Positions 14,499 through 20,426 are shown, counted from the first letter of the stretch. The stretch is 64,000 nucleotides of DNA from Burkholderiales bacterium (GCA_036379875.1 DASVFV010000098.1:19828-83827), one strand, 5' to 3'. A program made the numbers and translations. The notes: a model not told the origin generated them from the letters alone.

Positions 14499-14876
14499 AT
14501 GGACGCGCAATACCTGCCGCTGGCCCGGGCGGCGACGCTGCTCTACGCGCGGCTATTCCCGGGCGACAAGGTGAAGGACGCGAAGACGCTCGACCTGCTG
14601 GCGGTCGCGATCTCGGCGCGCCTGCCGCTCTACCAGCAAGAGGTGGAGAACGGCCCGGTCAGGCAGGTGGCCGCAAAGGACATCGAGCGCGGGCGCTTCA
14701 CGCGCGGCGCGGCGCGCCTGGAGGTGCCGGATCGGGCGCCGCTGCGCTTCCTCCTGGTGTCGCGCGCAGCGCTTTACGCGGCGCTCGACGCGATGGCGAA
14801 AGACCCTACTTTGACGAAGTGCCGCCCGCAGTCCCACCCACGGCTGCCGGCGTATTCTTCTGCGCGAGGCGCTTGA
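14499..14876 (+). CDS. Hypothetical protein (weak call)
   Basis: 125-aa ORF with no recognisable domain. Its 3' end overlaps the convergent MlaC-like gene by 71 nt. Confidence 0.3.
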   Translation: MDAQYLPLARAATLLYARLFPGDKVKDAKTLDLLAVAISARLPLYQQEVENGPVRQVAAKDIERGRFTRGAARLEVPDRAPLRFLLVSRAALYAALDAMAKDPTLTKCRPQSHPRLPAYSSARGA

Positions 14877-15435
14877 TCAGGCCGTCGACGCCCTCCTGCT
14901 TCACCACCGCGTCGAACTCGCTGCGGTAGGTGAGCACCAGGCTCACGCCTTCCACGACGATGTCGTAGATCTTCCAGCCGTGGTCGGTCTTGTGCATCGA
15001 GTAGTCGATCAGCACCGGCTTGCCGCCAGGGCGGATGAACTGGTTGCGCACCGTGGCCTCGCTGTCGCCCGGCTTCGCGCGCGAGGGCAGCACCTTCATG
15101 GTCTGGCCCTGGTAGGCGCTGATCGCGTTCGAGTAGGTGCGTACCAGCATGTTGCGGAACTCGGTGACCAGGCGCTTCTTCTGCTCGGCGCTCGCCTGCG
15201 CCCAGCCGCGCCCTGCCGCGAGGCGAGTGGCCTCCTCGAAGTCGACGTGCGGCAGGATCTTCTCTTCGGCGAGCTTGATGGCCTTCTGGCGGTCGCCGGC
15301 GGCGAGCTGCTTGTCGGTCTTGATCGCCTCCATCACCTCGCTCGTCAACTTCTTGACGAGCTCCTCCGGGCCGAGCTCCTGGCCGAGCGCCGGGACGGCG
15401 AAGAAAAACGCTAGTACCCATAGAAAGCGTGTCAT
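14806..15435 (-). CDS. MlaC/Ttg2D family periplasmic phospholipid-binding protein (orphan)
   Basis: Signal peptide and the hallmark WKIYDIVVEGVSLVLTYRSEF motif. The start overlaps the response-regulator stop (ATGA). Confidence 0.85.
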   Translation of the reverse strand: MTRFLWVLAFFFAVPALGQELGPEELVKKLTSEVMEAIKTDKQLAAGDRQKAIKLAEEKILPHVDFEEATRLAAGRGWAQASAEQKKRLVTEFRNMLVRTYSNAISAYQGQTMKVLPSRAKPGDSEATVRNQFIRPGGKPVLIDYSMHKTDHGWKIYDIVVEGVSLVLTYRSEFDAVVKQEGVDGLIKRLAQKNTPAAVGGTAGGTSSK

Positions 15436-16814
15436 GCGGCAGCGCGCTCCTTGTGGTCTTTATCGCCCTTCATATTACCTTTGAACATCCCCGGCTCGAG
15501 GGAGTGGCGCTCGAGCAGGCGGTAAAACTCGGTGCGGTTGCGCCCGGCCAGGCGTGCGGCTTTCGTCACGTTGCCGCCGGTGATCTTGAGGATGCGCACC
15601 AGGTAGTCGCGCTCGAAGGCGCGGCGCGCTTCATCGAGCGGCGTGAGCATGGTGTCGCCCGCGTCCAGGGCCTGGCGCACCAGCGACTCCGGGATCACCT
15701 CGGTGGCGGCGAGCGCCACGGCCTGCTCGATCACGTTGAGGAGCTGGCGCACGTTGCCCGGCCACGGCGCCGAGACGAGCAGCTGCATCGCTTCCGGCGA
15801 GAAGGCGAGCCGCCCGCGGCGGTAGCGCGTGCCGAGCCGGGTGAGGAATTCATTGGCGAGCAGCGGGATGTCCTCGCGGCGCTCGGCGAGCGTCGGGATG
15901 TAGAGCTTCACCACGTTCAGGCGGTAATAGAGGTCCTCGCGGAACTCGCCCGAAGCGATCCGCTCCTCGAGCTTGCGGTGCGTCGCCGCGATCACGCGCA
16001 CGTCCACCTCGAAGCTCTCGTGCGAGCCGACGGGGCGAATTTTTCGCTCCTCGAGCGCCCTGAGTAATTTCACCTGCAAAGGCAGGGGCATGTCGCCGAT
16101 CTCGTCGAGGAACAGCGTGCCGCCCTGCGCGGCCTGGAAAAGACCGCGGCGGTCCGATACCGCGCCGGTGAACGAGCCCTTCTTGTGGCCGAACAGCTCC
16201 GACTCGAGCAGGCCCTCGGGAATGGCGCCGCAGTTCACCGCCACGAACGGCGCTTCGGCGCGCGGGCTCGCGCGATGGATGGCGCGCGCCATCAGCTCCT
16301 TGCCGGTGCCGCTCGCGCCGTACAGGCACACGCTCGCGTCGGAAGCCGCCACGCGGCGCGCCTGCGCGAGCAGGTCTTCCATGGTCGAGGAGCGCGTGAT
16401 GATCTCGGCGCGCCAGTCCTCGGTGTTGCCGCTCGGCACGCTGGAGAGGCGCAGCGCCTCGGCCACGGTATCGAGGAGCACCTTGGGCTCAAACGGTTTG
16501 GTCAAGAACGAAAAAACCCCCCGGCGCGTCGCGCTGACGGCCTCTGGAATCGTGCCGTGCGCAGTCAGAATGACGACCGGAAGCGAAGGCGAGTCGCGAT
16601 GGATCGCGTCGAACAGCGCCATGCCGTCCATGCCCTGCATGCGCAGGTCCGTCACCACCACCTGGGGTCGTGACACCGCAAGCGCGGCAAGCGCCGCCTC
16701 CCCCGACTCGACGGCCGTGACGGTGTAGCCCGCGGCGGAAAGCCGCATGGCAATCAGCTGCAAGAGATCCTTGTCGTCGTCGACCAGGAGGACCCGGGGG
16801 TTCTCGTTCGCCAT
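15432..16814 (-). CDS. Sigma-54-dependent response regulator (NtrC family; GlrR/QseF-like by eye)
   Basis: Start corrected to MANENPRVLLVDDD (ATG at 16814). It has a REC domain, an AAA+ domain with Walker A GASGTGKE and GSFTGA, and a C-terminal HTH (…GRNRTEFYRLLERH). Confidence 0.9.
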   Translation of the reverse strand: MANENPRVLLVDDDKDLLQLIAMRLSAAGYTVTAVESGEAALAALAVSRPQVVVTDLRMQGMDGMALFDAIHRDSPSLPVVILTAHGTIPEAVSATRRGVFSFLTKPFEPKVLLDTVAEALRLSSVPSGNTEDWRAEIITRSSTMEDLLAQARRVAASDASVCLYGASGTGKELMARAIHRASPRAEAPFVAVNCGAIPEGLLESELFGHKKGSFTGAVSDRRGLFQAAQGGTLFLDEIGDMPLPLQVKLLRALEERKIRPVGSHESFEVDVRVIAATHRKLEERIASGEFREDLYYRLNVVKLYIPTLAERREDIPLLANEFLTRLGTRYRRGRLAFSPEAMQLLVSAPWPGNVRQLLNVIEQAVALAATEVIPESLVRQALDAGDTMLTPLDEARRAFERDYLVRILKITGGNVTKAARLAGRNRTEFYRLLERHSLEPGMFKGNMKGDKDHKERAAA

Positions 16815-16863
16815 CACCCTTACCTCTTCTCTCCTTGAGAATGCCGATTGTTGCGATGCATCT

Positions 16864-19674: not shown

Positions 19675-19676
19675 TC

Positions 19677-20396
19677 TCAGGCTGGACTCAGCACGGTGCC
19701 GACCACGCGCGCGCGGCAGAAGCCGAGGAAATCGCGCAGCCGCTCGAGCGCGCGGCTGCGGGTCGAGAAGCGCGCCACCACCAGCGCGCCGCCGGCGTAG
19801 GCCGCGGAGAGCTGCAGATCGGGGCCGAACGCGGCCGCCGGCGTATTCACCAGCACCGCGCGGTAGCGCTTGCCCGCCGCGGCGAGCAGCTCGAGCATGC
19901 GCGGGCGGCTCAGCAGCTCGAGCGGGTCGGCGCCGGCGCGGCCGGCCACCAGGACGGTGAGGTTGTCCTCGCAGTGCGCGAGGTGCGTGGCGCGGCCTTC
20001 GAGGAAGTCGGCGAGGCCGGCACGGTTGCGCAGGCCGAAAGCGCGGTGCAGCGAGGGGTCGCGGAAGTCCGCGTCGATGAGCAGCGTCGGCTCGCCGCGC
20101 CGGGCGAGCGCGCGCGCCAGCTCGGCCGCGACCTGCGTGCCGTTGTCGCCGGTCTCCGCGCTCACCACCGCCAGCACCGGGCGCCCGCAGTCGAACCAGT
20201 GCGCGCTCAGCTGGCGCGCGAGGTCGGCTGCCGCGAGCGGGCGCGCCGCGACGATCGGCATGCCGAGCGTGGCGATGAGATCCCTTTCGGAGCGCACGCG
20301 CTCGGCGCGCCGGGAAACGAGCGACAGGCAGACCAGGCCGACAACGACCGTGGCGGTCGCGAGGGCAAGTCCCGCGGCGGTGTGCGGCTCGAGCAT
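19677..20396 (-). CDS. BY-kinase (CpsD/EpsG)-like P-loop protein with degenerate Walker A and B motifs
   Basis: The Walker A' motif LLIDADFRDP is intact. Walker A reads SAETGDNGTQ (no Lys) and Walker B reads VLVNTP (Asn for Asp). There is no C-terminal Tyr cluster. An alternative start exists at ATG 20261. Confidence 0.7.
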   Translation of the reverse strand: MLEPHTAAGLALATATVVVGLVCLSLVSRRAERVRSERDLIATLGMPIVAARPLAAADLARQLSAHWFDCGRPVLAVVSAETGDNGTQVAAELARALARRGEPTLLIDADFRDPSLHRAFGLRNRAGLADFLEGRATHLAHCEDNLTVLVAGRAGADPLELLSRPRMLELLAAAGKRYRAVLVNTPAAAFGPDLQLSAAYAGGALVVARFSTRSRALERLRDFLGFCRARVVGTVLSPA

Positions 20397-20410
20397 AGGG
20401 GCCCCTCACC

Positions 20411-20426
20411 AGCAATGCGCGTGCCA
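20411..20426 (-). promoter_or_regulatory. Sigma-54 (-24/-12) promoter
   Basis: The minus strand reads TGGCACGCGCATTGCT, a perfect TGGCAC-N5-TTGC. It is intergenic and lies directly upstream of the 20396 start, in an operon that encodes a sigma-54 activator. Confidence 0.7.

Follow-up and report, generated by a model that had tools for sequence, protein, structure and literature searches.

The two-component system GlrK/GlrR (QseE/QseF) is understood mainly in Enterobacteriaceae, where it governs rpoE and the small RNA GlmY. GlrR binds TGTCN10GACA motifs upstream of glmY, and sites resembling those of integration host factor (IHF), WATCARXXXXTTR, flank these GlrR motifs (PMC3045617). In Proteus, glmY, qseE, qseG and qseF are reported to form a single operon, and the promoter region of glmY is reported to hold QseF sites (PMC8745638). 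Sigma-54 is known to govern genes for the envelope and for polysaccharides in other systems (PMC3162934; PMC5552954), and in Burkholderia cenocepacia, RpoN and BerB control the Bep exopolysaccharide, BerB being described as an effector of cyclic di-GMP (c-di-GMP) at the berA promoter (PMC5552954). Here we describe a candidate sigma-54 promoter, termed P1, and the five genes downstream of it in a 64,000-nt stretch of DNA from a Burkholderiales bacterium (GCA_036379875.1, DASVFV010000098.1:19828-83827; this whole stretch is hereafter called the window). Judging from sequence comparisons, the locus is quite probably a GlrK/GlrR (QseE/QseF)-type system of a soil Burkholderiales lineage, with positive feedback through the sigma-54 promoter.

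All coordinates refer to the 64,000-nt window, and loci that were fetched as relatives carry a number preceded by L. The relatives comprised four loci among the GTDB species genomes, all of them metagenome-assembled genomes (MAGs), and 80 soil loci from a metagenome scan. P1 and its operon contain the following elements, given in the direction of transcription.

20479 to 20496: upstream activating site, palindrome TGTCG-N8-CGACA (equivalent to TGTC-N10-GACA, the GlrR/QseF box), centre at about -87 from the predicted start
20444 to 20456, plus strand: IHF-like site that separates the activator site from P1, AATCAACGACTTT, WATCAA-N4-TT
20411 to 20426, minus strand: putative sigma-54 promoter P1, TGGCACG-CGCA-TTGCT, with GG at 20425-20424 and GC at 20413-20412
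20399 to 20401, minus strand: transcription start as predicted from the -12 GC, 11-13 nt downstream of its C
19677 to 20396, minus strand: g1, encoding a BY-kinase-like protein of 239 aa, start codon abutting P1
18349 to 19674, minus strand: g2, encoding 441 aa, after a 2-nt gap from g1 (TGA-GA-ATG)
16864 to 18327, minus strand: gene for a GlrK/QseE-like sensor histidine kinase, GTG start, after a 21-nt gap from g2
15432 to 16814, minus strand: gene for a GlrR/QseF-like regulator, after a 49-nt gap from the kinase gene
14806 to 15435, minus strand: MlaC-like gene, whose start overlaps the regulator stop by 4 nt (ATGA)

These coordinates bear out an earlier interpretation of the same DNA (the sequence-only reading), which had described five co-oriented genes with the gaps and the overlap listed above. 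It had also called the operon self-contained. The co-oriented gene set stands, and the term itself proved too strong, because a second sigma-54 promoter candidate 4.8 kb away, P2, carries a related upstream site. The histidine kinase gene has an alternative start at ATG 18312, and the gap between the kinase and regulator genes carries a strong Shine-Dalgarno (SD) sequence, AAGGAGAGAAGAGG. Within the operon, the search for terminators gave weak terminator-like matches only, at chance frequency. Gene order was conserved, with an amidohydrolase gene, the P2 operon, an EpsL-like gene on the other strand, and then g1, g2 and the kinase, regulator and MlaC-like genes.

Read on the minus strand, positions 20426-20411 give TGGCACGCGCATTGCT, a full match to the extended consensus TGGCACG-N4-TTGCW, and the GG and GC dinucleotides are spaced by 10 nt, as in sigma-54 -24/-12 promoters. 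This direct reading confirmed the TGGCAC-N5-TTGC that had been reported at this position. Within the window, TGGCAC-N5-TTGC occurs twice, at P1 and P2, while 0.12 occurrences were expected from shuffled sequences, and both copies are intergenic and oriented toward the downstream gene. Across 522 kb of fetched loci, searched on both strands, TGGCA[CT]-N5-TTGC[AT] was found at the P1 and P2 positions only. All loci with g1 and sufficient upstream DNA (59 fetched loci, ~50 distinct sequences) had TGGCA[C/T]-N5-TTGC[T/A] at the P1 position, and among these orthologous loci the N4-5 spacer and the flanks were variable while the -24/-12 motif was kept. We aligned 50 distinct regions with MAFFT, which separated the upstream sites that ungapped anchoring had blurred by one-base offsets. 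The positions conserved at 90% or more were the TGTCG/CGAC palindrome, AA-N4-TTGATT, TGGCA, TTGC and ATG, and the bases between these blocks varied, including the 8-nt spacer of the palindrome. Because the -24/-12 motif is conserved at the same place across ~50 distinct sequences while its surroundings vary, P1 is almost certainly a functional sigma-54 promoter.

Strings resembling sigma-54 promoters do arise by chance in GC-rich DNA, and three sites elsewhere in the window with one mismatch to the motif appear fortuitous. That P1 is likewise a chance match with no promoter function is exceedingly improbable, given the number of perfect matches expected per window (0.12), the 522 kb of loci with no off-target match and, above all, the conservation of the motif in ~50 diverged sequences together with the activator and IHF sites, which effectively refutes it. 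The same conservation and the layout of activator site, IHF site and -24/-12 elements support the assignment of a sigma-54 promoter made in the sequence-only reading.

On the minus strand, the palindrome reads TGTCGTGCGGGGCCGACA, and ~70 nt separate it from P1 downstream. TGTC-N10-GACA has no other exact match in the 64-kb window (0.47 expected). The E. coli glmY site, which we read directly, is TGTCGCTTTCTGGCGACA (TGTCG-N8-CGACA), and its extended half-sites are the same as those of the P1 palindrome. Among the relatives, the half-sites were conserved at 90% or more with a variable spacer, and 48 of the 50 distinct regions had GTC-N10-[GA]AC at a constant 69-70 nt from TGGCAC. An IHF-like AA-N4-TTGAT was present in 46 of 50 regions; in the distant P1 group this element is AACTCATTGATTTT, the same string as the IHF site that we read directly in the E. 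coli glmY promoter. The locus thus shows the arrangement of a sigma-54 promoter, an upstream activator site with an IHF-like site between that site and the promoter. In one locus, L048 (region 2140-2301), a TGTCG-N8-CGACG site is kept, and there is no sigma-54 motif between this site and g2. A CATAAT-like -10 element is found in place of the motif, which may represent a promoter replacement.

The regulator has the REC, Sigma54_activat (243 bits), AAA_lid_14 and HTH_8 domains (Pfam). It also has the loop GSFTGA, in agreement with the sequence-only reading, which had recognized an AAA+ enhancer-binding protein with this loop. The acceptor Asp aligned with that of GlrR (TDLRM in the regulator, SDLRM in GlrR), and the protein has the features of the NtrC class. 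The best NCBIfam model was GlrR, with 636 bits, followed by NtrC with 412 bits, and the regulator was 59% identical to E. coli K-12 GlrR over the full length (445 aa). The helix-turn-helix (HTH) sequences, GNVTKAARLAGRNRTEFYRLLERHSL in the regulator and GNVTHAARMAGRNRTEFYKLLSRHEL in GlrR, have a near-identical helix in which RNRTEFY is identical. The kinase has HAMP, HisKA and HATPase domains (Pfam) and shared 35% identity with E. coli GlrK in an alignment of 457 positions, which covered residues 33-476 of the 487 in the query. Among the fetched loci, the regulator was 85-97% identical and g1 48-77% identical, the regulator being far more conserved than g1 or g2. The palindrome and the regulator gene co-occurred in all P1-bearing loci long enough to include the regulator gene. 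Since the sole exact GlrR box of the window is upstream of P1 and the regulator is a full-length homologue of GlrR with a near-identical HTH, it is well supported that the regulator would act as a GlrR-type activator of its own operon. The positive autoregulation that had been proposed from the gene content is supported by inference from the same two observations.

The predicted transcript of P1 would have a very short leader. Sixteen nucleotides separate the -12 C, at 20412, from the first base of the g1 ATG, at 20396, in agreement with the distance of about 16 nt given in the sequence-only reading. At E. coli glmY, whose promoter depends on GlrR, the annotated +1 follows the corresponding C by 13 nt. 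A start at ~20399-20401 would therefore leave a leader of 3-5 nt ahead of ATG 20396, which we infer to be the whole 5' untranslated region (UTR) of the P1 transcript. The in-frame g1 ATG lies 14-20 nt after the -12 C in 33 of 50 distinct sequences (mode 16-19) and 24-26 nt after it in 8 of 50. SD-like tetramers were found upstream of g1 in 4 of 43 distinct sequences (9%), the window with its GAGGGG being among these exceptions, compared with 25 of 26 (96%) for the regulator gene. The segment 20396-20262 has a coding composition (G+C of 0.87 at third codon positions) and encodes a membrane helix and a conserved RSExxL motif, and the Met at 20261 is not conserved among g1 relatives. Three loci have remnants of g1, of 33 codons in L026, 13 in L065 and 8 in L046. 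All three begin 16-17 nt beyond the -12 C, and a TGATG joins the end of each remnant to the g2 start codon. In the window, g2 has no SD sequence and abuts g1.

The sequence-only reading had left two starts for g1, a near-leaderless ATG 20396 and ATG 20261. Because the start position is conserved, SD sequences are rare, the segment 20396-20262 is coding, Met 20261 is not conserved and the remnants keep the ATG, we favour ATG 20396 as the genuine start, probably used with no SD sequence, and g2 would be translated by coupling to g1. In a limited literature search, we found no explicit description of sigma-54 promoters giving leaderless mRNAs.

Several observations weigh against a GlrR-dependent autoregulatory operon of this design. 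The score of the regulator, 636 bits, is lower than the curated GlrR equivalog cutoff of 763 (NF011695), and for this reason we call the protein GlrR-like and not a certified equivalog. In E. coli, the kinase and regulator genes are separated by qseG; here no qseG homologue was found between them, and the 49-nt gap has no open reading frame (ORF). P1 has a single full box at about -87, compared with three boxes more than 100 bp upstream in enterobacteria. The right half-site is AACA instead of GACA in the group with 46-55% identity, and the site upstream of P2 retains the GTC/GAC core only. A subclade (L062, L069-L071, L075 and L078) has neither g1 nor P1, yet has kept g2, the kinase and the regulator, whose expression must hence be possible from a different promoter. 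With regard to translation, GAGGGG lies 7-12 nt ahead of the g1 ATG in the window and is a possible SD sequence on a longer transcript from an upstream promoter. Leaders of 3-5 nt are poorly translated in E. coli, and the g1 output from P1 may be low for this reason.

Some of these points would fit a functional P1 that is activated by another enhancer-binding protein encoded elsewhere, the operon's own regulator having other targets and no direct autoregulation. The regulator is below the equivalog cutoff and the right half-site is imperfect in the distant group; furthermore, the visible DNA is 64 kb of the genome, and one bacterium often has many NtrC-family activators with similar HTH_8 domains. 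However, the upstream site is an exact GlrR box, unique in the window, the recognition helix is nearly identical to that of GlrR, and the site and the regulator gene occur together in all P1 loci long enough. The position of the promoter upstream of the kinase gene is also the same as in enterobacteria. We consider activation by another protein quite unlikely, and positive autoregulation by the GlrR-like regulator remains our preferred reading.

The points on translation bear on a different alternative, in which P1 is real but g1 is made from a longer, SD-bearing upstream transcript, or P1 serves the downstream genes through their own ribosome-binding sites. In addition to GAGGGG and the poor translation of very short leaders, the strong SD sequence of the regulator gene fits this explanation. 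It has to contend with the rarity of SD-like tetramers upstream of g1 (4 of 43 sequences) and with g2, which also has no SD sequence and abuts g1. The ATG and TGATG kept by the remnants are hard to explain unless ribosomes start there, and no sigma-70-like promoter was found on the minus strand of the 185-bp intergenic region. This alternative is unlikely in our view, and ATG 20396 near the 5' end of the P1 transcript remains the favoured start.

The g1 protein is membrane-anchored, has a P-loop fold and resembles bacterial tyrosine kinases (BY-kinases), with 122 bits for the EpsG model (cutoff 314). Its Walker A motif reads GDNGT in the window, where the Lys is replaced by Gly; most relatives have Arg, and the Lys is replaced family-wide. 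The Walker B motif of the window copy is VNTP, in which the Asp has become Asn. The C-terminal Tyr cluster is absent throughout the family, and of the BY-kinase motifs the window copy has kept only Walker A' (DxD). We conclude that g1 is BY-kinase-like but not a BY-kinase, and it is predicted to be catalytically dead. Of the earlier description as a BY-kinase-like protein, the likeness holds; what it had missed is the degenerate form, with loss of the Walker A Lys, the Walker B Asp and the Tyr cluster. In the longer g1 relatives (~317 aa), a small periplasmic loop separates two membrane segments, a topology shared with Wzc, and the window g1 has a single segment. Across the lineage, g1 sizes were 317, 260, 239 (window), 33, 13 and 8 codons, a series in which g1 is being lost.

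The g2 protein consists of an N-terminal region of ~330 aa with no assignment and a C-terminal hexapeptide-repeat acetyltransferase. In the structure model, residues 1-220 had a predicted local distance difference test score (pLDDT) of ~90, and the C-terminal hexapeptide region was modelled poorly. Compared with the PDB, residues 1-220 gave weak matches to Pol-beta-type nucleotidyltransferases (best E 0.009), and the usual catalytic acidic motif was not evident in this region. The g2 family was seen in soil metagenomes and MAGs only. Its identity was 46-75% among the metagenome loci and ~70% for the best GTDB species genomes, which are Burkholderiales MAGs. The search for regulator homologues likewise returned metagenomic and MAG sequences only, at least 91% identical, with no cultured species among the matches.

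The fifth gene of the operon encodes a protein of the periplasmic lipid-binding type, with 191 bits for Pfam MlaC (cutoff 26) and 125 bits for HpnM (cutoff 160). Its N-terminus, MTRFLWVLAFFFAVPALGQE, resembles a signal peptide by eye. No mlaD, mlaE or mlaF was seen adjoining the MlaC-like gene. A convergent gene of 125 aa (14499-14876, plus strand) overlaps its 3' end by ~70 nt and is conserved in other loci. It has a -10-like TAAGAT/TATGAT 5-8 nt ahead of its ATG and may be transcribed from a sigma-70 promoter as a leaderless mRNA. A third sigma-54-like site, TGGCAG-N5-TTGCC at 14468 on the plus strand, lies 17 nt before the ATG of this gene. We rejected it as a chance match because conservation extends to the gene and not to this motif, in whose place a TATGAT-like -10 element is conserved. 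A site with one mismatch, GGGCACAGGGCTTGCA (10447-10462, minus strand), is located in the last 55 nt of a GNAT-domain gene (10406-11563), 55 nt ahead of ATG 10393 of a 204-aa gene.

P2, its operon and the divergent gene that lies between the two operons are listed below.

25349 to 25366: upstream site of P2, CGTC-N10-GACG, core GTC-N10-GAC, centre at about -157
25211 to 25227, minus strand: second putative sigma-54 promoter, P2, TGGCACG-CGGC-TTGCA, TGGCACGCGGCTTGCA, conserved in orthologous loci
21923 to 25169, minus strand: P2 operon, five genes
24825 to 25169, minus strand: P2 operon, secreted EF-hand protein
24081 to 24824, minus strand: P2 operon, APH-like protein (kinase fold)
23825 to 24079, minus strand: conserved charged ORF of 84 aa, N-terminus MSAAATAAGYLYASGRLRGR, stop overlapping the next ATG (ATGA)
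23316 to 23828, minus strand: GT1/GT4 glycosyltransferase, C-terminal domain only, 170 aa
21923 to 23305, minus strand: P2 operon, GDP-mannose pyrophosphorylase/isomerase (ManC)
20582 to 21844, plus strand: divergent gene for an EpsL-like outer-membrane beta-barrel protein (EpsL 199 bits, cutoff 275), synteny conserved
20520 to 20549, plus strand: sigma-70-like promoter of the epsL-like gene, CAGACA-18-TAGAAT, the sole such match in 11 kb

P2 is located in an intergenic region ~43 nt before ATG 25169 and would give a leader of ~30 nt. The GTC-N10-GAC core is ~140 nt upstream of the P2 TGGCAC and was read in this position in 14 of the 15 distinct P2 regions, and P2 also has an IHF-like TAA-N4-TTGTTG. 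The P2 operon probably belongs to the same regulon as the P1 operon. The 84-aa charged ORF had no Pfam family match. L001 has the same short form of the glycosyltransferase and the other loci retain room for it, so it does not result from a local frameshift. The 5' UTR of P2 (25170-25200, minus strand) contains a conserved block, ACAAGTGCCAACTCCAAG, with no obvious SD sequence before ATG 25169; this block may act in the RNA as a regulatory element or may represent an unconventional signal for translation.

Upstream of the divergent epsL-like gene, the -35 block, TGTCTGCC (minus strand, 20517-20525), is conserved, and the -10 block, GATTCTAG (minus strand), recurs in relatives. The TGTCTGCC block lies upstream of the GlrR box and contains a TGTC half-site, and the regulator might influence epsL. 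Elsewhere in the window, we found a DUF748/YhdP-like protein of 1165 aa (32697-36194), from an AsmA-type family of envelope lipid transport, and genes for a c-di-GMP protein with PAS, GGDEF and EAL domains (40296-42908) and for the type IV pilus ATPase TfpB (42909-44912).

The neighbourhood invites another identification of the two-component system, as PrsK/PrsR of a PEP-CTERM/exosortase exopolysaccharide system, with the promoter in that regulon. The divergent gene resembles EpsL of XrtB/PEP-CTERM loci, g1 is EpsG-like, and the regulator scored 376 bits on the PrsR model (TIGR02915). All three scores are below their cutoffs, however (PrsR 376 vs 503, EpsL 199 vs 275, EpsG 122 vs 314), and GlrR, with 636 bits, was by far the better-scoring model. 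A PEP-CTERM tail is missing from the secreted EF-hand protein, and no exosortase was found among the larger annotated genes of the window, the smaller genes having been scanned in part. A PrsK/PrsR system is thus highly improbable, and the GlrK/GlrR assignment is kept.

From the sequence elements, their conservation and the homologies, which were read directly, we propose a model in which sigma-54 dependence, binding by the regulator, the start site and translational coupling are predictions. The membrane kinase would phosphorylate the regulator, and a regulator dimer would bind the palindrome TGTCG-N8-CGACA at about -87. IHF would bend the DNA at about -50, and the AAA+ domain of the regulator would open the sigma-54 closed complex at TGGCACG-N4-TTGCT. 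The resulting transcript would span g1, g2, the kinase and regulator genes and the MlaC-like gene, leading to self-amplification. P2 would probably be fired by the same regulator and would drive the genes for the EF-hand protein, the kinase-fold protein, the small charged protein, the half glycosyltransferase and ManC. g1 would be translated with no SD sequence from a transcript starting ~3-5 nt upstream, and g2, also SD-less, would be coupled to g1.

A broader reading, which we offer tentatively as a minority possibility, is that autoregulation through a GlrR-dependent sigma-54 promoter, placed directly ahead of the kinase gene, is ancient in the GlrK/GlrR module, and that lineages have inserted different cargo behind this promoter. 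The cargo would be GlmY in enterobacteria and, in this locus, a decaying Wzc-like gene and an acetyltransferase fusion. The P1 transcript would be effectively leaderless, and its first ORF would be mainly a 5'-terminal leader ORF, on which SD-free translation begins at the end of the transcript and delivers ribosomes to g2 through the stop/start overlap. Such a leader ORF would explain why remnants of 8-33 codons retain the position of the ATG and the TGATG junction.

The locus offers a target set for GlrK/GlrR outside Enterobacteriaceae, with two promoters and about ten envelope-related genes in uncultured soil Burkholderiales, a group both abundant and distant. The comparison suggests that the DNA code, TGTCG-N8-CGACA with an IHF site, has been kept across classes, and if this is so, E. 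coli would be directly usable as a test bed. The spacing of 14-20 nt between the -12 element and the ATG, together with the mini-ORFs, makes the lineage a natural system in which to ask if sigma-54 transcripts can be translated with no leader. If the first ORF does act as a leader ORF, the locus would represent conserved coupling between a sigma-54 promoter and leaderless translation.

Among described systems, GlrK/GlrR with glmY and glmZ of Enterobacteriaceae shares with the P1 locus the sigma-54 -24/-12 elements, the TGTCG-N8-CGACA box and the IHF site AACTCATTGATTTT. In E. coli the promoter is likewise directly upstream of the kinase-regulator genes, whose products show the identities given above (59% for the regulator and 35% for the kinase). 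The glmY-qseEGF operon reported in Proteus is a feedback loop as well. Besides the number and position of the boxes, the P1 locus differs from enterobacterial GlrR promoters in that its cargo is protein-coding and not a small RNA; an Rfam scan of the whole window gave no family at the gathering score and no GlmY or GlmZ. Instead of a qseG, the P1 locus has an MlaC-like gene coupled to that of the regulator. At P1 we detected no overlapping sigma-70 promoter, and the predicted leader is ~3-5 nt.

The Wzc/EpsG kinases have in common with g1 the P-loop fold, the Walker A' DxD and the membrane anchor, and with its longer relatives the topology of two transmembrane segments. In contrast to these kinases, the g1 family has no Walker A Lys and no Tyr cluster, the window copy has no Walker B Asp either, and g1 has decayed to mini-ORFs in some loci and is missing altogether in one subclade. 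The BerB system of B. cenocepacia comes from the same order and places sigma-54 and an enhancer-binding protein over genes for matrix and envelope polysaccharides, but no two-component kinase, GlrR box or autoregulatory operon has been described there. We dropped the Bep/BerB cluster as an identification of the locus, the best GTDB genomes reaching ~70% identity only for g2 and being Burkholderiales MAGs, and the regulator being a GlrR homologue with a receiver domain. No close relative of the P1 locus was found among the GTDB species genomes.

The classical case of positive autoregulation is glnAp2-glnA-ntrB-ntrC (glnALG) of enteric bacteria, in which a sigma-54 promoter is followed by cargo, a kinase and the promoter's own activator. 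The P1 operon has the same layout, but differs from glnALG in the regulator subfamily, the DNA site and the signal, which is nitrogen status in glnALG. glnA has an ordinary leader and SD sequence. Apart from its near-leaderless geometry, which is the unusual feature, the P1 operon follows the textbook design of a sigma-54 promoter that heads a single operon for cargo, kinase and activator.

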